From: Bdellovibrionota bacterium
GTDB taxonomy: Bacteria; Bdellovibrionota_C; UBA2361; CALJRW01
Length of the DNA: 64,000 nt
Reading direction: 5' to 3'
Assembly: GCA_041740355.1 (NCBI GenBank)
Contig: JBGSMD010000046.1
Span: 19,950 to 83,949, forward strand
A model generated the notes under the pieces. The model worked only from the letters and a program-made list of their open reading frames with translations. It had not been told where the DNA came from and searched no databases. Of this stretch, positions 53,492 through 64,000 are shown one piece after another (position 1 is the first letter of the stretch; each line of letters starts with the position of its first letter). The position numbers and the translations under genes are program-made.

Positions 53492-54550
53492 TCACTTGGA
53501 ATCTGTTTTTTTATATCCAACAAGTTCAACATAAGCCTGTCCGGTGACTTGATTGCTTTGATAGACAAGACTTCTTCCTTCCCAGTATGTTACACTTAAA
53601 TCTTTACTGGTAAATTCTTGATTGGCTAAAGTAGGCTTAATTGTTAGATCGAGATTAAACTTGGGTACCTTTATCTTCCAGAGTGCCGGATAAGAAATCT
53701 GCGTTTCGCTACTTTTCCAATAATCTAAGACCTCAATTTGATAATCATTAAGATCTAAATTTTCTTTAATACCAGAATGATTGATGAATGACCCTTTAGA
53801 ATAATTCGTAACATTTCCAGCAGCGTCTTTTAAATAGTACAACATGAGTTCAGTATTATTATCTAACTGAATTGCAAACCAATCCCAGCCGGCTTCTTGT
53901 CGATTAACAGTTTTGCCCATTACCTCATGGTCCATCCAGACCTTAGCAGTGATCGGATAATTTTGATGATTTAAAATTAACTCGCCTTCGCCTTGAAGGT
54001 TACTAAAGCTCGTGTACAACGAGGCACTCCCGTTCTCTTTACTTTTAGCACTGAATCCATCTGCCCCTTGGAGAATCACCGGTTTCTTTGGTTGGAGGAC
54101 TAGGTTAAGTTGATAATTTGGTAAGTTAATAGAAAGACTTAGTTGATCCTTAATCAGCTTGATTCGATGATTTAAAGCAGAGATATCTAGAGTTTCCGAC
54201 GAGCTTTTAACTAAATCAAAATTTTCTCTAATTAATTCTTCTTGATGATAATATTTATTATCCTGATCGTCTGTTAACGCTGTATGTACGATGAAGACAT
54301 TCTTTGATTTCCAAGGCGAATCACTAACTCTAAAATCATCAAGACCTACTCTAAAAACTGTTATCTCGAAGCCAAAAGTTCTGTTTTCATTAGCAGTTAA
54401 ATGTCCAGTAAAATACCACCACTCCATCGGATAGTTGTCATGACTACCGTGGTCTTTTGGAAAACTGAATTGATAGTCAGGTTTCACAGTTTGATATTCA
54501 GCAAGACAATTGCTTGATAATAATATTATAAATAATATACGTAATAACAT
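53492..54550 (-). CDS. AttH-like lipocalin/CrtC-family secreted protein
   Basis: Signal peptide. FPKDHGSHDNYPMEWWYFTGHL...FGFEITVFRVG is the AttH/CrtC signature. It lies adjacent to a MacB-type ABC exporter. Confidence 0.75.
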   Translation of the reverse strand: MLLRILFIILLSSNCLAEYQTVKPDYQFSFPKDHGSHDNYPMEWWYFTGHLTANENRTFGFEITVFRVGLDDFRVSDSPWKSKNVFIVHTALTDDQDNKYYHQEELIRENFDLVKSSSETLDISALNHRIKLIKDQLSLSINLPNYQLNLVLQPKKPVILQGADGFSAKSKENGSASLYTSFSNLQGEGELILNHQNYPITAKVWMDHEVMGKTVNRQEAGWDWFAIQLDNNTELMLYYLKDAAGNVTNYSKGSFINHSGIKENLDLNDYQIEVLDYWKSSETQISYPALWKIKVPKFNLDLTIKPTLANQEFTSKDLSVTYWEGRSLVYQSNQVTGQAYVELVGYKKTDSK

Positions 54551-54551
54551 C

Positions 54552-56954
54552 TTATTCGAATTTAAGTTGAGTAGAATCAGTTTTAAATTTTAAAAATCTA
54601 ATTGCATAAGCAAGAAGCAAGGGAATCGTAATAATTCCAGTAATTAGTTTAAGTGAGGTTTGAAATTTAATACTCCAGCCAAAATAATTAGGATTAACAA
54701 TAAATACTAAATAGTAAGCAAATAATAAGCCCAGAGTAACGCCAAGTAAGATGCTTAAACCGACAATCAACAATGATTCAAAACTAATAATTTTAGAAAT
54801 CTGTTTGGAATTAGCACCGATCGCTTTTAAAGCAGCAAAGTTTCTTGCTTGATCAATGAGTAGTAATTTAAGATTTGTAATTAGATTGAGTAAAGAAATA
54901 ATTAAGCTAATTAGTAGAATATTATAAGTTAAACTGAAAGTACTATCAAAAATTTCTAAAATTTCCTGCTTTATTTTTTGATTATTAGTAACTAAAAACT
55001 TCATCTCCGACTTAGCTAATTGATTGATAAATTGATTAACTTTCTCTGGGCTTTTTGAAGACTTATTAAGAAAAATTGAAACAACATTAGGTTGTTGCTG
55101 CTTAGTAATATCACTAAACTTTTGAAAGTTAATAGTGACTGTTCCGAACTCTGATTTGTAGTCAATGTAGCTTCCCAGGATTTTAAATTTGACTAGTTTA
55201 TTTTGAAAACTAAAACTAATTTGATCGTTAACATGCAACTTATGTTTTCTTAGAAAATTTTCAGAGACAAAAGCTCCATTAGGATTAATCTTTTTGGGTA
55301 GCTTTTCTTTGAAAACGTATTTTTCTGTTAGGTTTATAAAGGGAGTACCAATTAATGTTACAGGTTGATTGTTATATTCCAGATCAAGAAACGTAGCATA
55401 ATCGATACTCTCAATCTCAGGATTTTTTAATAGTTCTTCTAGGAAACTATTGGGAAAATATGCTTGATCCTGAGTCATGAAGTTTTTGGACATTGTTAGA
55501 TAAACATCGGCATTAATAACTTTGTTAATCCACTGGTCTACTGTCACACGAAAGCTGAAAATCATTGTGCCAATTCCTACAATCATCGCAACAGAAATAC
55601 TAATTGCAGCAATCGTGGCGGATTGTCGTTTTAAATTTGAGCTAAAATGATCAAAAACATAGGCAGTCGTTAAATTCCAACTTTTAGCAGGTAAGAGCTT
55701 AATAAGACTTGGAAGGATTAGAATTAAACTCAGAATAATTAAACTAGGCGGAACAAATAACCATAAGTCTTTTAACTCGAAGATAATTGGTATTGCCGCA
55801 ATAAACAATAAAACTAAGCCTAAATAAAAATATCCTGGTACCTTATTACTAAATATTTGTTCTGAATTTTCTTTGGAGAGACTATACTTTATTGATAATT
55901 TTAAGGCCTCTCGGCTTGGTAAATAGCAGGCAACCAAGCCAGTAAAGAAAGTTGCCAAGCTAGTTAGTACGACTGTTTTCCAAGAAGGGAATAGCAATTG
56001 ATCATTTTGATATTTATACAAAGTTTCTAAAGAACGTTGAAAGTAGATTTGTGAAAAATTTGCTAAGCAGATACTAAAAATAATTCCTGTGAGAATTGCT
56101 GTCGTGATTATTAGGATCGCTTCGAGGTAGATGATCAATTGGATCTGTCTTGGTCTGGCACCTAGCGTTCTAAGAATTCCAAAATCTGGACCTCGAATAT
56201 TTGTGAGGTATGAAAAAATATTATAAATGATCAAAACACTTAAACCGATGGCAATTGCTGCCATGAAATTCAAATTCGCCCGCAGTGCTCTAGTTAAATC
56301 TGCTGCGGCTGATTTCATTTGAAAGTTATTCTTAACTGAGTAGTCATTGCCAAGAAAGCTGACTAGCTCTGCTTCCGAACATTCTCTGACAATTAAGTAG
56401 TCCACAGTTTCGTAATTTTTTGTGACATCTTGGAAGGTTGCGATGTCCGTAATAAAGTTGTTACTTTTAAGGAGATGACTAAAGTTCTTCTTGATCCGGA
56501 GGGGGCGGACATTTGCGCGTTGTTTATTGCCATCAATCTCCAAAAGCTCTTCTGTTGGATTAGGACTTAAGCTGTAGAATATTGGTAGATTGCTGAAATT
56601 CTCTTGCTGGGTGCTTAGGTTTAATAGAAAAAGATCCGTTCCAATTAAAGTTTTTGCAATTCGATTCTCAGTATAAATCGTTCTAGTACTAATAGGAGTG
56701 ATTAAGGAACTAGGAAATCTTCTTTTAATTTGAGAGTAGAGTTCATTTGCTACCGGTGCACCAGATAATGACCTAACTACTAACTGCTCATTTGTAAAAA
56801 GTAGGTTGGTTTCATTCTTATAGTTCTGAATAATATTTTCATTAATTGTTAATACTGTAGCTAAGATTGCGACCCCTAGCGTTAAGCTGATAATAGTTAG
56901 AAAATACTTAAAAATATTATGTCTGATATAGGAAAGGGCATAGAGTAATGGCAT
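54552..56954 (-). CDS. ABC transporter permease with two FtsX-like domains (MacB/AttF-AttG type)
   Basis: An 800-aa protein with two 4-TM FtsX-like blocks separated by periplasmic domains. Confidence 0.8.
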   Translation of the reverse strand: MPLLYALSYIRHNIFKYFLTIISLTLGVAILATVLTINENIIQNYKNETNLLFTNEQLVVRSLSGAPVANELYSQIKRRFPSSLITPISTRTIYTENRIAKTLIGTDLFLLNLSTQQENFSNLPIFYSLSPNPTEELLEIDGNKQRANVRPLRIKKNFSHLLKSNNFITDIATFQDVTKNYETVDYLIVRECSEAELVSFLGNDYSVKNNFQMKSAAADLTRALRANLNFMAAIAIGLSVLIIYNIFSYLTNIRGPDFGILRTLGARPRQIQLIIYLEAILIITTAILTGIIFSICLANFSQIYFQRSLETLYKYQNDQLLFPSWKTVVLTSLATFFTGLVACYLPSREALKLSIKYSLSKENSEQIFSNKVPGYFYLGLVLLFIAAIPIIFELKDLWLFVPPSLIILSLILILPSLIKLLPAKSWNLTTAYVFDHFSSNLKRQSATIAAISISVAMIVGIGTMIFSFRVTVDQWINKVINADVYLTMSKNFMTQDQAYFPNSFLEELLKNPEIESIDYATFLDLEYNNQPVTLIGTPFINLTEKYVFKEKLPKKINPNGAFVSENFLRKHKLHVNDQISFSFQNKLVKFKILGSYIDYKSEFGTVTINFQKFSDITKQQQPNVVSIFLNKSSKSPEKVNQFINQLAKSEMKFLVTNNQKIKQEILEIFDSTFSLTYNILLISLIISLLNLITNLKLLLIDQARNFAALKAIGANSKQISKIISFESLLIVGLSILLGVTLGLLFAYYLVFIVNPNYFGWSIKFQTSLKLITGIITIPLLLAYAIRFLKFKTDSTQLKFE

Positions 56955-57598
56955 TAGGCTTGGAGTTGATAATCCTTTAAATGCACAATCTGATCTGCAA
57001 AGGATATTAATTCTTGGTTATGGGTGACAACAATTACAGTCTTCTTTTCTTCAACTGCTAGCTTTTTAAGAATTGTCATTACTTGATATGAGTTCTCCGT
57101 ATCTAAATTGCCTGTTGGCTCATCGGCTATAATAATATCTGGGTTGTTTATTAATGCTCGGGCAATAGCAGCTCTTTGAAGTTCGCCTCCTGAAACTTGA
57201 TGAGGAAAAGAATCAGCAAGCTGATCAATACCGAGGGTCTTCATTAACTTAAGGGCGTTATCAGTATTTGCAGGACCAACTAAATAACTTGGAAGTAGAA
57301 TATTTTTTTTAATACTTAAAGAGTTCAAGAAATTAAAAAATTGAAAAACAATTCCAAAATTATTAGCACGAATTACAGCCAACTTATCTTCAGATAATTG
57401 GTTAATATTTTCTGATTTAAATGAAACTTCACCTTTGTCCGGCAGATCTAATCCTGTAACCAAATTTAATAAGGTGCTTTTTCCAGAACCACTAGGACCA
57501 AAAATTAAATACAATTTTTGCGCCTCAAAAGTAAACGTCAGATTATTAAGTACCTGACGTTTACCATAAGACTTAGAAACAGCTATGAGTTGCAACAT
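56954..57598 (-). CDS. ABC transporter ATP-binding protein (LolD/MacB-type)
   Basis: Walker A GPSGSGKSTLLN, signature VSGGELQRAAIARAL, Walker B IIIADEPTGNLD. Confidence 0.9.
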   Translation of the reverse strand: MLQLIAVSKSYGKRQVLNNLTFTFEAQKLYLIFGPSGSGKSTLLNLVTGLDLPDKGEVSFKSENINQLSEDKLAVIRANNFGIVFQFFNFLNSLSIKKNILLPSYLVGPANTDNALKLMKTLGIDQLADSFPHQVSGGELQRAAIARALINNPDIIIADEPTGNLDTENSYQVMTILKKLAVEEKKTVIVVTHNQELISFADQIVHLKDYQLQA

Positions 57599-57822
57599 CC
57601 TGTTTTCTTTTCAGTTGAACAAGCTCCGCAACCTTTAGTGAAGTTTGCTAAACCCATAAAAGTCGGAGCCCAGAGTCCGACAAAAATTCCGAATCTTTCG
57701 GCATGCGCGATACTCTCAGCATCAGTACCTTTGCTAAGATACCAAATAGAAATCGAACCAATAATTGAAGCCATCGCTAAAATAACACAAAGTAGACTAA
57801 ATCTTTTACAACATGCTGACAT
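57583..57822 (-). CDS. Candidate small Cys-rich membrane protein, translationally coupled to the ABC ATPase gene
   Basis: A 79-aa protein with one TM helix and a C-terminal GCGACS...GCCNS Cys cluster. Its stop overlaps the ATPase start by 16 nt. Confidence 0.35.
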   Translation of the reverse strand: MSACCKRFSLLCVILAMASIIGSISIWYLSKGTDAESIAHAERFGIFVGLWAPTFMGLANFTKGCGACSTEKKTGCCNS

Positions 57823-57889
57823 AAATTTTCTCCTAATAGTAAAGATCTTTGAACTAAGACGTCTTAATCTTAATTTAATTACTAATAAC

Positions 57890-58021
57890 TTGATACCAGC
57901 AAAGATTTGTCAAAATTGTGGTCGATCATTTGATTTCCGCTCCAAGTGGAAGAATTGCTGGGAAGAGGTAAGATATTGTTCGGAAAAGTGTCGACAAGTA
58001 TATAGTAATGACAAAAAATAA
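57890..58021 (+). CDS. DUF2256-like zinc-ribbon small protein (TTG start)
   Basis: IPAKICQNCGRSFDFRSKWKNCWEEVRYCSEKCRQ matches the C-x2-C...YCS-x2-CR zinc ribbon of DUF2256. Only the last 43 codons of track ORF 57518..58021 look coding. Confidence 0.45.
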   Translation: MIPAKICQNCGRSFDFRSKWKNCWEEVRYCSEKCRQVYSNDKK

Positions 58022-58469
58022 TTTACTGCCTGCCTAGCCGAAGCTTCAGCGAAGGCTGGTTAGTAAATTAAACAGAGTCATTACGGCTAATGCAAATCTT
58101 GAATTCTTGTCGCGCCAAAGCAAAAGCTACGGCGGATATCCAAGTTTACATAGCTAAATGCAACATAAATAGTGAGTCCAAGCGAAATCCTTAGCTTTTT
58201 AAAGTAATTTATTATTTGGACTCACTATAAAGAGTCCAGAGTCAATTTTTGGAAGCAAGAGATATTAATAAGTTGTAACTCTAATACTTCAATTTGTCCC
58301 TCGCAAATTGCAAGAAAGGCTCTACCCGAGGCTTGAAAAGAGCACATGGAATTTTTGGGACAAGCTGCCCGTTTGCTTGTACACGAAGGAGATATCGTAA
58401 TACTTCAAGGTAATAAAATTGTGAATCCTAGCGAGTTTAAGGCACCAATACGATTAAAGTTAAAATAGT

Positions 58470-59600
58470 ATGCTTAGATCAACAAGTACTTTATTATCAG
58501 ATTTAAATCTTAGTGGACTGGCCGACATTCTTAGTAGACTGAACTTAGCGAGCTATCACCAAACAAGAAATTATTTAGATGGCGCTGTTTCTGGGTTATC
58601 ACCGCTAATTACTCACGGGGCTATTACAATACCTGATATCATAGATAACTTAGAAAAGTTTCCTCTTAAAGATCGTGCTGGATTCATCTTTCAACTTGGA
58701 TGGCGAGAGTATTTTCAAAAGATATGGCAAGATTATAATCCACTTGAAGAATTAAGAGATAACTATAAAAAGAAATTATTTTCTGGTGTTCCGATCCCGA
58801 TTATAGAGCGAAATACAGGTCTGGAAATAATTGATCAAGAATTATCAACGTTAATCAGTACTGGCTATATTCATAACCATTCACGTTTATGGATTGCTAG
58901 TTTGACCACTCATATCTATCAGGGAAATTGGAAGGACTCGGCTACTTGGATGTATTATCATTTACTTGATGGTTGCCCCGCCAGTAATTTTCTTTCCTGG
59001 CAATGGGTTTACGGAAGCTTTAGCAGTAAGCCATATTTGTTTAATCAAGATAACTTAAATAAATATTCCAAATCTAATCAGATGAGAACATTTATTGATT
59101 GTGATTACTCGGTAATTCCAAATTTGAAATTATCGGTTCCGATGAAACCATTTGTGACTGAAAGTTTAATCGACGAGTGTCAACTTGCATTAATGAGTCT
59201 TTCGACAATAAAAAAGGAGCAAATTGTTAAGTCATCTGAGATTCTATTGTACTCAATTTTTACTCTTGATGCTAATTGGAGGTCTGAATCTTCCGGATTA
59301 AGAGTCTTGTGGTTAGATCCAAAGTTTTTTTATGAGTATCCGATTAGTCCAAAGAGAGTAGAATTTATCCAAAGTTTAATAAACAGAATTCCAAATCTAT
59401 CTGTTTATTATGGGGAACTGTTAGAAGATGACTTAACTCACCAAAAAGTATTTTTAAAAGATCATCCGATATTTAAAGAATGGAAGATTAAAAAGGATAC
59501 CGATAGTTACATTCTTCCGGATGTCACTGTTAGCAAAGATCGCAGTTATTTTTGGTATTGGAAAAGAATTGCCAAGCAATTAGGAATTAATTACCCTTAG
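58470..59600 (+). CDS. Cryptochrome/photolyase-family FAD-binding-domain protein (no canonical N-terminal photolyase domain)
   Basis: GYIHNHSRLWIASLTTHIYQGNWKDSATWMYYHLLDGCPASNFLSWQWVYG resembles the FAD_binding_7 core (GYMHNRLRM...DADxASNNGGWQW). Confidence 0.55.
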   Translation: MLRSTSTLLSDLNLSGLADILSRLNLASYHQTRNYLDGAVSGLSPLITHGAITIPDIIDNLEKFPLKDRAGFIFQLGWREYFQKIWQDYNPLEELRDNYKKKLFSGVPIPIIERNTGLEIIDQELSTLISTGYIHNHSRLWIASLTTHIYQGNWKDSATWMYYHLLDGCPASNFLSWQWVYGSFSSKPYLFNQDNLNKYSKSNQMRTFIDCDYSVIPNLKLSVPMKPFVTESLIDECQLALMSLSTIKKEQIVKSSEILLYSIFTLDANWRSESSGLRVLWLDPKFFYEYPISPKRVEFIQSLINRIPNLSVYYGELLEDDLTHQKVFLKDHPIFKEWKIKKDTDSYILPDVTVSKDRSYFWYWKRIAKQLGINYP

Positions 59601-60380
59601 TAGTTGGTCATGAACTAGGCCATTACTAATCAGGCCTGGTTTGGTAGAATTTCTTAAGACAAATGGACTTCCATCAAAGCTACTACATTTTCCACCGGCT
59701 TCTTCTACGATTAATACCATGGCAGCAATGTCATAGGCATTATAACCCATGATGGTGTAAGCTACGGCATTGCCTAAGGCGACAGTAGCAGCTTCACAAA
59801 CAGCGGCACCAAAGTTTCTAGTTCGCCCTACTTCCGGCATTAGTTTTTTAACCATAGCAAACCAATTTTTATTATACTCATCTTGAGCAGTTAGGGTTTT
59901 GCCTAAGTTTAATCCATTATTGATCACCATTGCTGTTTTTAAGTCAGAGTATTTGCTGACCGCAAGTTTTTGATCATTACAAAATGCGCCATGGCCTTTT
60001 AATGCTGAAAAAAACTGGTTCATCATGGGGCAATCTACAACTCCTAGTTGCAGCACACCTTCGTATTCCATCGCGATAGAAACTCCCCAAAGTGGCAGCC
60101 CCGCAGCATAATTGGCAGTACCGTCAATTGGATCAACGTGCCATTGATAAGGGCTGGAGGTATTGAAGTCGACTCCTTCCTCAGTTACTAGTCCATGAGT
60201 TGGAAAGTGTTTTAGGATTTCTTCGCGAATTAAAATATCGCAAGCTAGATCAGCCTCTGTTACTAAGTCCTTGGGATTTTTTTCAATAATTTGATTGAGC
60301 TTTGGACGCATTGAAACAGCAAGTTTACCTGCAACCTGAGCAATATTTTTTGCAACAATAAATTCTTGGTTGAAATCCAT
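59580..60380 (-). CDS. Inositol monophosphatase family protein (SuhB/CysQ-like)
   Basis: WHVDPIDGTANYAAGLPLWGVSIAM and the C-terminal WDIAAMVLIVEEAGG. Confidence 0.85.
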   Translation of the reverse strand: MDFNQEFIVAKNIAQVAGKLAVSMRPKLNQIIEKNPKDLVTEADLACDILIREEILKHFPTHGLVTEEGVDFNTSSPYQWHVDPIDGTANYAAGLPLWGVSIAMEYEGVLQLGVVDCPMMNQFFSALKGHGAFCNDQKLAVSKYSDLKTAMVINNGLNLGKTLTAQDEYNKNWFAMVKKLMPEVGRTRNFGAAVCEAATVALGNAVAYTIMGYNAYDIAAMVLIVEEAGGKCSSFDGSPFVLRNSTKPGLISNGLVHDQLLRVINS

Positions 60381-60412
60381 AAGCTTTTCCAGATAAATGA
60401 TTAGAGTTGATA

Positions 60413-61423
60413 CTAGTTTACTAGTTTCGTTTTTTTCTTAGCAGTATATTTAAGTTTTTCAGTATAAACCAATTTATAATTTTTGATTGTGGCTTTCATG
60501 ATCTGTTCAAATGCTTTCATCTCACCATTCGGACGATAAAGTACTTTCCCCGGTTTAGAGTTCATTTCAATCATATAGGCTCTACCATTTGGATCTAACA
60601 TAAAATCAGCAGTTAGCATGCTATAAGGATATTTATTGATTACTTTCTCAACGAGAATCCAAGCTTTCAGTACTGCCTGGGGAACTTCTGATTTTTTAAG
60701 AATCATCATTTTTGCACCACGAGAAAAATTAGAGAACAAGCTACCGTTAGTGGCTACCCGAGTATAATAATGAAGCACTTCTCCATTTGCATAGACTACA
60801 CGATAGTCCTGAACTGGGTGTTTAGTAGTGATAAATTCTTGAAGTAAGTAATTTGGTTTAATATCTAATTTTAAGGCATCCTTCTTTAAAAGGATCTCAA
60901 CGTTTTTAGCACTGCTTCCTTCTCGGGGCTTAATTACTACTTTCTCTGAGTTGATTAAATTTATTTTTGCTTTTAGTTCCTCATTTGAATTGATTAAAAT
61001 AGTCTTTGGGTAGAGTGCTTTAAATTTCAAATAGTTTTTGTACTTATCAACTAGTAACATTTCCAAGTCGAAAGGATTGGCGGCAAACATTTTCTTCTTG
61101 GCGAAGAATTTTTTAAAGGGCATCAGTTTTGGTTTGTTTACTGATAAGTCATGAATAATATCAGCTTTGATATCAGAGACACGAATCCAACCCATCAGTG
61201 GATCAAGATACCACGCCTTAGTGAATAGTCCTGTTTTCGTATCATACCAGCGATAGTCAGCGCGTATAATGCTGATGTTTTCTTTTTTGGCAAAAGGAAT
61301 AAATTGTTGATAGTAAAACTCTGATTCTTTTTTGTAGATTCCCATTCTAGCGAAGATTGGATTGGTCCACTTCATAACAACGCAATTTGCTACAGTAAAT
61401 GGTGGTAATTTATTCTGGTTCAT
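60413..61423 (-). CDS. ATP-grasp fold protein (YheC/YheD- or RimK/TTL-like)
   Basis: VIKPREGSSAKNVEILL, LLQEFI, DYRVVYANGEV, DFMLDPNGRAYMIEMNSKPG. Confidence 0.6.
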   Translation of the reverse strand: MNQNKLPPFTVANCVVMKWTNPIFARMGIYKKESEFYYQQFIPFAKKENISIIRADYRWYDTKTGLFTKAWYLDPLMGWIRVSDIKADIIHDLSVNKPKLMPFKKFFAKKKMFAANPFDLEMLLVDKYKNYLKFKALYPKTILINSNEELKAKINLINSEKVVIKPREGSSAKNVEILLKKDALKLDIKPNYLLQEFITTKHPVQDYRVVYANGEVLHYYTRVATNGSLFSNFSRGAKMMILKKSEVPQAVLKAWILVEKVINKYPYSMLTADFMLDPNGRAYMIEMNSKPGKVLYRPNGEMKAFEQIMKATIKNYKLVYTEKLKYTAKKKTKLVN

Positions 61424-61605
61424 TGATTTAGAGTTTTAACTTTTGTTACTTCTGGAAGACTATAATCGAGCGCTCCTCTAGTACCTATTACTAGATTATT
61501 TAGCTCCGCTTGCAAGATGCTAATTCGCTTTTGGTATTTAAGGTCTGTAAGGCCATTTGTTATTTGGTAGGGGTCGGCTAACATATTATAATACTCTAAA
61601 ATCAA
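61420..61605 (-). CDS. Small 61-aa protein translationally coupled (ATGA overlap) to the ATP-grasp gene
   Basis: MILEYYNMLADPYQITNGLTDLKYQKRISILQAELNNLVIGTRGALDYSLPEVTKVKTLNQ. Its stop overlaps the ATP-grasp start codon. Confidence 0.45.
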   Translation of the reverse strand: MILEYYNMLADPYQITNGLTDLKYQKRISILQAELNNLVIGTRGALDYSLPEVTKVKTLNQ

Positions 61606-61697
61606 AGCCTAGATCCTCAGAAATCAATAAAAGTACGTTCGGTAACTTTTCTGCTAAGGTAACATTGGCAATAAAAAGTATGAGAATAGCTAAATAT

Positions 61698-62531
61698 TTA
61701 AACAATATGACTACTATTATTAAAATCTAACTCCTGGACTAATTTAATATTCTGTAGCAGATGTTCGGGATTTATGGTGCCAGCAACAAGGCTTTTCACT
61801 CCTTGATGTTGAAGGGCTGCTTGAAAACATTTTCTTAAGCTTGTCTGGGGACTCTTAGAATCTAAATGTCCTGATAATAACCCCTTTTTAACAGTGATAG
61901 ATTTTCCTAAAAACTCAGCATTCTCGATTACGGATAGGTGCTCTTGGTAATCAGGATTGAATGGAATCATTGCTATATCCGAATTTTCTAAAGCGAAAAG
62001 TCCACCAGCAACAGAGTGAGTGGATGCTCCATAAGATCTAATTAGGCCTTTCTTTTTAAGTTCTGCTAAGGTTTCTAAAGCAGCACTTGTTTGCATTGTT
62101 TCTAAATCATTCCGTGGCAAGTGTAGTAATACTGTATCTAGGTAGTCAGTCTTTAAGCGCTTAAGACTGCGCTCAATGCTAAAGATTAAATGTTCTTTAG
62201 AAAAATTATAAGTAGAATTTTCACCATCAAATTCTTCGCCAACTTTTGTAGAAAGTATAAACTCTGTGCGTTTTCCGACAAGGAGTTTGCCAATTCTTTC
62301 TTCGGCAATTCCATAAGCGGGAGCTAGATCGATTAAATTAATTCCATGTTCTAAGCAGATGGTGATTAACTTTAAAACTGTAGCATCGTCAGGTAAAGGA
62401 AAACCATCTGGTGTTTTGTTTTTCACCATGAAATTTCTACCAACCTTTACTGTGCCCCAGCTTAGTACCGACACTTCGATTCCAGTATTGCCTAGTTGAC
62501 GCTTTGCTATTGCCATTTCGTGTCCTCCCAA
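61698..62531 (-). CDS. Aldo/keto reductase family oxidoreductase
   Basis: GINLIDLAPAYG, the catalytic Tyr/Lys context (ILSTKVG), and the overall (alpha/beta)8 pattern. Confidence 0.8.
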   Translation of the reverse strand: MGGHEMAIAKRQLGNTGIEVSVLSWGTVKVGRNFMVKNKTPDGFPLPDDATVLKLITICLEHGINLIDLAPAYGIAEERIGKLLVGKRTEFILSTKVGEEFDGENSTYNFSKEHLIFSIERSLKRLKTDYLDTVLLHLPRNDLETMQTSAALETLAELKKKGLIRSYGASTHSVAGGLFALENSDIAMIPFNPDYQEHLSVIENAEFLGKSITVKKGLLSGHLDSKSPQTSLRKCFQAALQHQGVKSLVAGTINPEHLLQNIKLVQELDFNNSSHIV

Positions 62532-63691
62532 GGGTAATTACCAATCTGTGGCGAGTTTAACTTTAAATTCTCAGAGGAGTTACTGCTTGTAAGTTTTTGT
62601 TTTTCTAAGGCACTTAATAGTTTGTGAGTAATGGCAGGAGCAAAGGTTAGTTTGGTTGGCCAGGCAAGCATGGTGTTACTTTTTTCCATAATAGCCGGAC
62701 CTTCGGGGAGGAATCCATTACTGGTATAAGGCTCGGCCCGATCAATTAATAATGTTGACCATTTCTTGCTATCCCAATTAATAAATGGAAATAAAGTTTT
62801 CAATTCTTGTTTTGCAAAATCGATAGCGACTTCATCACTGTCTTCAATATGTTTTACTGCAACTAGACCACCTAAATACCAAGTGAATTTTCCATTTGCT
62901 TTAGGGTGCGCTGACACAGTGACTCTGGGCCTTGGATCAATAGTAATGCAGTGGGCGTATAGTGGATATTCAATATCATCAACCAGAATTTGCTTTAATG
63001 GACGTCTTTGAGTTGTTTTTTTGTTAGGCCAAAGCTTAGCAGCTATTTCTTCGTTACCCAGGCCAGCTGTAAAAATAAACTGATCGGCAGTGAGTTCTAA
63101 CGTCTGCACGCCTTGTGTAATAACTAGTGATTCTAATTTTTCGTTTTTTACATTTAATTCTAAATGATCAATCTTGAGGATCTGTTCTAAGTAGTTTCTA
63201 CTAAGAGCTTCAGCAACACTTTGAATATCCAAAACTACTTCATCTAACTGATAGATCTTACCTTTAAATTTTTTATGTGCTTGGAAAATTTCTGGCCAAT
63301 GCTCTTTTGGTAAACTATCAACTCGGGAGTTCATTGCTTTAGAAGCAAAAAAAGAAGTTACGTTTGCGGTTAATCCGCCGGGTGACCACATGTATTGTTT
63401 AGAACTTAAAATTTTGGCTGAACTTAAATCGGGAGTAATTTCACCTTTTAGTGCTTGATCCCAAATTCCGGGCATAGCAGAAATAGATTCTGAATGGCTA
63501 CTTAGTGCGCCTTGCAAGGCGTAACGTTGTCCACCGTGAATCATTCCTTGGGAGGCTAGGCTTTGAAGTCCACCAATAGCATTTTTTTCTAGAAGAATTA
63601 CATCGTACCCCTTAGTTTTTAGAACATTAAAGCTCCAAAGCCCGGCAATGCCTGCTCCAACGATAATAATTTGATGGTGAGATGAATTCAT
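62507..63691 (-). CDS. FAD-dependent oxidoreductase
   Basis: The N-terminal Rossmann motif is HQIIIVGAGIAGLWSFNVL. It overlaps the AKR gene by 25 nt. Confidence 0.75.
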   Translation of the reverse strand: MNSSHHQIIIVGAGIAGLWSFNVLKTKGYDVILLEKNAIGGLQSLASQGMIHGGQRYALQGALSSHSESISAMPGIWDQALKGEITPDLSSAKILSSKQYMWSPGGLTANVTSFFASKAMNSRVDSLPKEHWPEIFQAHKKFKGKIYQLDEVVLDIQSVAEALSRNYLEQILKIDHLELNVKNEKLESLVITQGVQTLELTADQFIFTAGLGNEEIAAKLWPNKKTTQRRPLKQILVDDIEYPLYAHCITIDPRPRVTVSAHPKANGKFTWYLGGLVAVKHIEDSDEVAIDFAKQELKTLFPFINWDSKKWSTLLIDRAEPYTSNGFLPEGPAIMEKSNTMLAWPTKLTFAPAITHKLLSALEKQKLTSSNSSENLKLNSPQIGNYPWEDTKWQ

Positions 63692-63767
63692 GTTTCTAGT
63701 TAGGAAATTACTTGGTTAGTTCTTATAGTACTACAATATTTTGATAAATTATGCGATTCTCTGACTT

Positions 63768-64000
63768 ATGTCTAAGTTGCGAATTACGGAATCTCTCAGT
63801 CAGGAATTAATGGAAGCTGCCTTGATCGAAGCCAGGAAGGCGGCCCTTGTGGAGGAAGTGCCAGTAGGTGCTGTTGTCTATTATCAAGATCGGATTATCG
63901 CGCGCGCTCACAATTTAGTAGAAATACAAAAGGATAGCTCGGCTCATGCCGAAATCTTAGCAATTAAAATGGCCGCCGAAGTTTTAGGAGATTGGCGCTT
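63768..64000 (+). CDS. tadA: tRNA-specific adenosine deaminase TadA (5' part; runs off the window)
   Basis: EVPVGAVVYYQDRIIARAHNLVE...SAHAEILAI (the HAE zinc-binding motif). Confidence 0.8.
   Translation, partial: MSKLRITESLSQELMEAALIEARKAALVEEVPVGAVVYYQDRIIARAHNLVEIQKDSSAHAEILAIKMAAEVLGDWR

Follow-up and report, generated by a model that had tools for sequence, protein, structure and literature searches.

What is an ATP-grasp ligase doing behind a pair of redox genes, and is the short open reading frame (ORF) that ends on its start codon a protein made for it or a peculiarity of one genome? These questions are raised by a 64,000-nucleotide (nt) stretch of contig JBGSMD010000046.1 from a Bdellovibrionota bacterium, here called the window, in which a minus-strand cassette at positions 59580–63691 carries, in order, a FAD-dependent oxidoreductase of the DAO family, an aldo/keto reductase (AKR), an ORF of 61 amino acids (aa), an ATP-grasp ligase and a phosphatase of the IMPase family. 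All five ORFs lie where an earlier note on this DNA had placed them, and Pfam confirms the four enzyme families. That note had left two readings side by side; is the cassette an ATP-grasp enzyme with a dedicated small protein, as in peptide-tailing or macrocyclising systems, or is it a small-molecule pathway?

The conserved unit of the cassette is the DAO–AKR pair. Its two proteins are orthologous to PA4991 and PA4992 of Pseudomonas aeruginosa, its two genes are adjacent in every locus counted, close copies of the ATP-grasp gene occur solely after the AKR gene, and the relatives carry no 61-aa ORF. The best-supported account of these comparisons is that, in a narrow, uncultured, low-GC lineage, the operon appears to have gained, at its 3′ end, a rare RimK/GshB-like ATP-grasp enzyme and, in the window and the nearest relative (locus L001), an IMPase-family phosphatase beyond it. 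As an explanation of function, we give about even odds to a PA4991/PA4992-type redox operon that has been joined by a RimK/GshB-like ligase and a phosphatase and acts on an anionic metabolite, with the 61-aa ORF as an orphan peculiar to this strain.

The conserved redox pair

The first gene of the operon (62507–63691, minus strand, 394 aa; Pfam DAO, 52.6 bits) encodes a protein that matches the structure of PA4991 (PDB 5ez7) over nearly its whole length, with a phmmer score of 272 bits (E 7.7e-80) and residues 7–389 aligned on 9–388. Its N-terminus, IIIVGAGIAG, contains the GxGxxG FAD-binding motif, and the alignment places PA4991 residues His53, Arg316 and Lys345, whose active-site roles have been described (PMC4741190), in the retained segments SQGMIHGG, IDRAEP and WPTKL. 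By these criteria the protein is classed as a PA4991-type GR2 flavoenzyme, GlpD/ThiO-like in character. The AKR (61698–62516, minus strand, 272 aa; Pfam Aldo_ket_red, 101 bits) in turn matches PA4992 (PDB 4exa/4exb) at 211 bits (E 1.6e-61), and alignment to 4exa shows that it keeps, in LIDLAPAYG and STKVG, the catalytic Asp/Tyr/Lys triad defined for PA4992 (PMC3539698). Alignment thus identifies the two as full-length orthologs of the P. aeruginosa proteins.

Where does the AKR begin? The 25-nt overlap with the DAO gene that the earlier note described holds for an alternative TTG start at 62531 and not for the ATG at 62516, which gives 10 nt. Because GGGAGGA lies 6 nt upstream of this ATG, the public record holds the 272-aa form (i.e. 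the ATG 62516 start), and the resulting 10-nt overlap matches the DAO/AKR overlap in L001, ATG 62516 is most likely the true start.

The DAO family is broad, with 1676 homologs at E ≤ 1e-20, whose source names range over Bdellovibrionota, Alpha- and Gammaproteobacteria and certain bins of candidate phyla. In all ten loci in which adjacency was counted (the window, L001, L002, L012, L013, L014, L052, L053, L054 and L055), an AKR gene lies directly 3′ of the flavoenzyme gene on the same strand, and the two usually overlap.

What is known of this pair comes from P. aeruginosa, where PA4991 and PA4992 form one operon and fall within several essential-gene sets (PMC4741190, PMC3539698). PA4991 was inactive on 41 amines and amino acids, and also, when NAD(P)+ was used in the assay, on glycerol-3-phosphate; a substrate with a phosphate or carboxylate group was proposed by those who solved its structure (PMC4741190). 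In the searchable literature, no subsequent functional assignment of PA4991, PA4992 or their PDB codes was found. The cassette shares with the Pseudomonas operon its gene order and its overlapping or abutting genes; it differs in what comes next, as neither an ATP-grasp nor an IMPase gene follows the pair in Pseudomonas or in the DAO–AKR loci examined from outside the clade.

The surroundings of the pair vary. In Oceanicoccus sp. (L053, 3481–9707) it is flanked by a Kdo-transferase-like gene (Glycos_transf_N; waaA-like) and an hldE-like gene (PfkB + CTP_transf_like), whereas in the window it lies beside a divergent tadA-like gene. The Oceanicoccus arrangement is similar to the waaA...hldE neighbourhood of PA4991/PA4992 in PAO1, and it may hint at a link with lipopolysaccharide inner-core metabolism in Gammaproteobacteria. 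Additionally, HAD-family phosphatase genes occur 1–4 kb upstream of the pair in two loci, in unrelated contexts (L052, 3318–4004; L055, 1628–2305); with the IMPase of the window, these may point to a phosphorylated substrate, or they may be coincidence.

An appended ATP-grasp ligase

To which branch of the ATP-grasp superfamily does the ligase belong? The protein (60413–61423, minus strand, 336 aa) scores 51 bits against Pfam ATPgrasp_YheCD (cut-off 26.8), 45 against RimK PF08443 (cut-off 21) and, marginally, 24.4 against GSH-S_ATP PF02955 (cut-off 23). It reaches the cutoff of no NCBIfam model, scoring 22 bits against the LysX equivalog TIGR02144 (cutoff 275.6) and 33 bits against the GshB equivalog NF009110 (cutoff 408). 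The family with the top Pfam score, YheC/YheD (PF14398), is itself functionally uncharacterised, and its model is matched at positions 107–250 of 255 only. The N-terminus of the protein, PPFTVANCVVMKW, is conserved from the annotated ATG.

As a single sequence, the ligase finds no PDB chain at E ≤ 1 with phmmer. A family profile built from 50 sequences and run against the PDB finds RimK first (7qys, 59.5 bits), then ArgX/LysX (41.8 bits) and GshB (38 bits), with TTLL6 and cyanophycin synthetase among the lower matches. These matches cover the ATP-binding and catalytic domains alone (positions 127–292), and the N-terminal ∼125 residues match no solved structure. In the family alignment K165, D273, E286 and N232 are invariant and G236 nearly so; the ATP/Mg ligands K165, D273 and E286/N288 are thus conserved, as is the N232-x-x-R-G236 loop, which aligns to NLHRGG of RimK. 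On this evidence, the enzyme is a predicted carboxylate–amine ligase of the RimK/LysX/GshB/TTL group, in an uncharacterised branch of it.

Structure prediction discriminates less. An AlphaFold model built on a five-sequence alignment is mediocre, with a predicted local distance difference test score (pLDDT) of 67.9 and values below 50 for the N-terminal 30 residues, and Foldseek matches it to ArgX, Ddl, MdnB, synapsin, ITPK1 and RimK, i.e. to generic folds at a TM-score of ∼0.5, with no discrimination among subfamilies. ITPK1, an inositol phosphate kinase, was considered as an identity in view of the IMPase neighbour and was rejected as a non-specific fold match; the profile favours ligases.

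How far, then, does the likeness to characterised ligases extend? For RimK it is the best PDB match of the profile and the presence of a RimK-like ATP-grasp domain, on a generic fold that is common; the difference is that full-length orthology is missing and that the adjacent 61-aa ORF has no acidic C-terminus. For the LysX/ArgX systems with their carrier LysW, the equivalog score is far too low and the 61-aa ORF has neither Cys nor an acidic tail. No S6-like or LysW-like partner with an acidic tail is encoded nearby. The likeness to the graspetide ligases MdnB, MdnC and PsnB lies in the ATP-grasp fold, where the Foldseek matches, at ranks 3 and 18, are no closer than Ddl or ITPK1, and in the small ORF that this one genome has immediately upstream; the difference is that there is no sequence similarity and that the putative precursor is unconserved and without Thr/Ser-Asp/Glu core repeats. 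The earlier suggestion of a RimK- or graspetide-like ligase thus held for the RimK-like domain and failed for MdnB, MdnC and PsnB, to which the profile check gave no sequence match. Nor does the ligase fall in a housekeeping family, an outcome the earlier note had also considered, or group with the microviridin/graspetide ligases. In the comparisons made here, nothing specific links it to graspetide macrocyclases.

The ligase is rare. When 1.84 billion representative proteins were searched exhaustively with HMMER, 585 relatives were recovered at E ≤ 1e-3, just one other representative exceeding 50% identity, and a word-indexed search recovered four sequences at 64% identity or more, the window's own included. 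The other three come from loci with the same AKR-to-ATP-grasp junction as the window, L001 (83% identical), L015 (80%) and L002 (64%).

Linkage of the ligase and the phosphatase

The ligase gene is followed by a gene for an IMPase-family phosphatase, the last of the operon (59580–60380, minus strand, 266 aa; Pfam Inositol_P PF00459, 177 bits), across a gap that measures 32 nt (60381–60412) and not the 33 nt reported before. The best PDB match of the phosphatase is an inositol-1-monophosphatase (5zhh, 127 bits), and it reaches none of the NCBIfam cutoffs for HisN (161.7 bits against 275, its best), SuhB/IMPase (107 against 332) or CysQ (74 against 229).

Is this five-gene order conserved? It is not: the DAO–AKR pair is universal, the ATP-grasp gene is present in four loci and the IMPase gene in two. 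The IMPase gene follows the ATP-grasp gene in L001, where its product is 88% identical, and in L002 a SLFN_AlbA_2 gene stands in its place. A possible explanation, if on the unlikely side, is that the ATP-grasp and IMPase genes are unrelated passengers, the IMPase being a housekeeping enzyme of SuhB/HisN type and the ligase having a target of its own, such as a protein C-terminus. Most DAO–AKR loci do without both genes, the replacement of the IMPase in L002 fits the same idea, and in the window a 274-nt spacer (61424–61697, minus strand) with promoter-like hexamers on the coding strand at 61523–61495 parts the ligase gene from the AKR gene. Distant relatives of the ligase, moreover, lie in tandem ATP-grasp arrays or beside M29/M20 peptidases, contexts that suggest peptide chemistry. 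Against the passenger explanation, all four close copies of the ATP-grasp gene (at least 64% identity) lie directly after the AKR gene on the same strand, with the DAO proteins of these loci as far apart as ∼60% identity, and in L002 the ATP-grasp start codon overlaps the stop of the AKR gene by 4 nt. The promoter-like matches, for their part, are no commoner in the region than in shuffled sequence (11 versus 15.0 ± 3.9).

Beyond the close copies the linkage disappears. Relatives of the ligase at 39% identity or less never adjoin DAO, AKR or IMPase genes, and genome and metagenome scans returned just loci at 36% identity or less in unrelated contexts.

These distant loci have features of their own. 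At ∼26–36% identity, relatives are often arrayed in tandem, two or three paralogs on one strand (L021, 5872–7793; L023, 5902–7762; L034, 4906–6840; L042, 6013–8848), an arrangement that suggests stepwise ligations. In L003–L007 and L010, which are labelled Woesearchaeota, a relative at 28–30% identity belongs to a conserved cluster (e.g. L003, 8649–14585) of an M29 peptidase, the ATP-grasp enzyme, an M20 peptidase, two short ORFs (92 and 93 aa), a further M29 peptidase and a protein of AP_endonuc_2/TIM-barrel type; the set suggests a module that ligates and hydrolyses amino acids or peptides and includes small proteins. In L009 (7362–11458), a metagenome-assembled genome labelled Bdellovibrionales, a 30% relative lies between ORFs of 476 and 341 aa, with a hydrophobic 218-aa ORF upstream; by sequence reading alone, the 476-aa protein looks like a second ATP-grasp enzyme with an extra C-terminal domain, the 341-aa protein like a glycosyltransferase and the 218-aa protein like a membrane protein. 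As for substrates encoded within the cassette itself, the C-termini of the AKR or DAO proteins were considered as targets of the ligase and rejected; the AKR C-termini are unconserved among the window, L001 and L015.

The 61-residue open reading frame

The ORF that gave the earlier note its peptide reading (61420–61605, minus strand; TTG start, internal ATG at 61584) does end in an ATGA in which its stop overlaps the ATP-grasp ATG. This overlap had been taken as a hallmark of a genuine small gene. The same ATGA context occurs in L001, L015 and L002, none of which has a small ORF, and in L002 the overlap is made by the AKR stop; therefore ATGA is no proof of a 61-aa gene or of its coupling to the ligase.

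Is the ORF conserved anywhere? A search of 5.8 billion proteins returned no homolog, its sole match being itself; there is no match to it in Pfam or NCBIfam, and tblastn of the peptide against the window and L001–L007 found no match. The gaps between the AKR and ATP-grasp genes are 44 nt in L001, 32 nt in L015 and −4 nt in L002, and therefore leave no room for it. Thus, conservation, the check that the earlier note had itself proposed, fails in all three relatives with the same junction as well as in the databases. The comparison of junctions indicates that the 274-nt spacer is an expansion unique to this genome. Of the spacer, a central 41 nt alone aligns with that of L001, at 78% identity; the ∼170 nt upstream and ∼55 nt downstream of this core have no L001 counterpart.

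Other explanations of the spacer were sought. A repeat search, and blastn against the window and all loci, returned the 41 nt of the L001 spacer as the sole match, and a repeat or mobile element was rejected, as no further copy exists in the window or the loci. An Rfam scan of 59000–64000 at E ≤ 1 gave no match, and a riboswitch or leader RNA was rejected on this ground. The spacer RNA shows no excess of structure (z +1.03), no terminator was found on its coding strand, and the counts of the terminator scan are not above those of shuffled sequence.

Additionally, the peptide lacks the features that would recommend it as a substrate. S6 and LysW have Glu-rich C-terminal ends, LysW combines a Cys zinc ribbon with a C-terminal Glu, and graspetide precursors carry a repeated Thr/Ser...Asp/Glu core. 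On inspection, the 61-aa peptide ends in ...KTLNQ, which is not acidic, contains no Cys and has no repeated Thr/Ser-Asp/Glu core, and therefore shows the features of neither LysW, a RimK substrate nor a graspetide precursor.

Several observations nevertheless speak for a gene in this strain. A Shine–Dalgarno-like GAGGA lies 8 nt upstream of its TTG. Its codon-usage log-odds of 0.256 falls within the range of the window's real genes (mean 0.284) and exceeds that of 96% of the window's stop-to-stop ORFs of 45–90 codons. When the 274-nt spacer is shuffled 20,000 times, 4.4% of the shuffles contain an ORF of 61 codons or more on either strand, and 0.34% contain one that ends at the ATGA. The ORF is also annotated as a gene in the public record, where it forms a singleton cluster. 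In this strain it exceeds chance expectation and is not dismissible as noise.

Does this make it a genuine coupled gene, whose product is the substrate or carrier of the ligase in a RimK/LysW-like C-terminal ligation or a graspetide precursor? The overlapping stop, the ribosome-binding motif, the gene-like codon score, the rarity of such an ORF among shuffles and the public gene call all speak for it, as does the presence of the protein-modifying RimK and ArgX/LysX among the nearest solved ATP-grasp enzymes. These points must be set against the absence of any homolog, the three loci in which a ligase 64–83% identical is preceded by a junction too short for the ORF, the ATGA contexts there that need no small ORF, the KTLNQ end with neither zinc ribbon nor graspetide core, and a ligase that does not match MdnB, MdnC or PsnB in sequence. 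We regard this explanation as very improbable. In other words, the reading of the cassette as an ATP-grasp enzyme with a dedicated small protein is contradicted on two counts, in that the small ORF is absent elsewhere and the gene order is unconserved.

Could the ORF instead be what decay has left of a longer gene or an insertion between the AKR and ATP-grasp genes, coding-like in composition and with no present function? The spacer is expanded in this genome alone, its 41-nt core is homologous to the L001 spacer between flanks that have no counterpart, and coding-like codon usage in an ORF with no homolog is what such a remnant might leave. On the other side, neither the window nor any fetched locus contains a donor sequence, and the intact start, Shine–Dalgarno-like motif and stop are equally compatible with a live ORF; we consider a remnant of this kind distinctly improbable. 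From the loci compared, the ORF is not a conserved partner of the ligase and is unlikely to be its dedicated substrate or carrier. It may best be described as a strain-specific orphan in an expanded spacer, either translated or a decaying remnant.

A proposed pathway

Of the two readings, the small-molecule pathway fits better because the core of the cassette is a PA4991/PA4992-type redox pair, and it is the one that we favour, at the strength of an inference. The products that the earlier note gave as examples, a cyclitol or an amino-acid-conjugated metabolite, are no more than guesses. In such a pathway, the flavoenzyme would oxidise a small anionic metabolite, phosphorylated and/or carboxylated, and the AKR would then reduce the product with NADPH. 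The ATP-grasp enzyme would form an acyl phosphate on a carboxylate of the metabolite or one of its derivatives, thereby activating it for ligation to an amine or amino acid, and the IMPase-type enzyme would take off a phosphate ester. A more committed form of the proposal holds that the ligase and the phosphatase are true pathway partners of the pair, and that the PA4991/PA4992 substrate is a phosphorylated carboxylic acid that is here amidated and dephosphorylated; we find this form doubtful. Its example substrates, a phospho-sugar acid or a phospho-hydroxy acid amidated with an amino acid, are offered just as tentatively.

What counts against the pathway? The four chemical steps are drawn from family membership and from gene linkage and order alone. 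The ATP-grasp gene is absent from most DAO–AKR loci, L012–L014 among them, whose DAO proteins are 56–59% identical; therefore the ligase is dispensable for the core function of the pair. The loci that do carry it are not monophyletic on a neighbour-joining tree of DAO proteins (built without bootstrap). The nearest characterised relatives of the ligase, RimK, LysX and TTL, act on protein C-termini, and the ligase could therefore modify a protein encoded in another part of the genome. Finally, the IMPase gene keeps its link in two of three informative loci and may be of the SuhB/HisN housekeeping kind.

Flanking genes

The cassette is a discrete unit, bounded by a divergent gene on one side and a convergent gene on the other. 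Upstream, a TadA-like deaminase gene begins at 63768 on the plus strand, and the 76 nt between it and the DAO gene (63692–63767) presumably form a promoter region. The translated 63768–64000 is 74% identical to the divergent dCMP_cyt_deam_1 gene of L001. A TadA-like gene lies divergent beside the DAO gene in the window (63768–64000), L001 (7400–7888) and L012 (6481–6948), three loci whose DAO proteins are 59–84% identical; this neighbourhood probably reflects inherited synteny rather than a functional link.

Downstream, a photolyase/cryptochrome-like gene (58470–59600, plus strand, 376 aa) is convergent with the IMPase gene, with a 21-nt overlap at the 3′ end of the latter; the photolyase-like product matches the FAD_binding_7 part of photolyases alone and has no N-terminal photolyase domain. 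Beside this gene lies an ORF (57518–58021, plus strand) in which Pfam recognises a C-terminal DUF2256 zinc ribbon (aa 125–160) and nothing else; its 5′ part, which has no match, is overlapped by a Cys-rich ORF of 79 aa on the other strand (57583–57822), so that the gene models here are provisional. In L001 (11852–13514) the IMPase gene is followed by one small ORF and then by SodC and uracil phosphoribosyltransferase (UPRTase) genes. Compared with L001, the window has at 53492–59600 a block inserted between IMPase and SodC, which holds the photolyase-like and DUF2256 genes, a MacB-type ABC transporter (ATPase, 56954–57598; permease, 54552–56954) and a CrtC/lipocalin protein (53492–54550).

Outlook

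What is new here is an operon variant; what is known is the functionally unassigned PA4991/PA4992-type pair at its core. There is a general caution in the locus, in that neither an ATGA overlap nor gene-like codon usage made the 61-aa ORF a conserved partner, and comparison with three relatives sufficed to remove the reading of the cassette as a peptide-tailing system or as one for ribosomally synthesized and post-translationally modified peptides.

Both members of the P. aeruginosa pair, PA4991 and PA4992, are essential and structurally solved, and their substrates are still to be assigned (PMC4741190, PMC3539698). An operon that links their orthologs to a carboxylate–amine ligase, predicted to be translationally coupled to the AKR in one relative (L002), and to a phosphomonoesterase restricts the range of substrates to look for and directs attention to anionic compounds with a carboxylate, a phosphate or both. 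If the ligase and the phosphatase are true partners of the pair, the cassette would provide a testable handle by which to deorphanise two essential drug-target candidates. The most useful outcome of the analysis is thus the tie to PA4991/PA4992, together with the hint that this pair can acquire an acid–amine ligase and a phosphatase.

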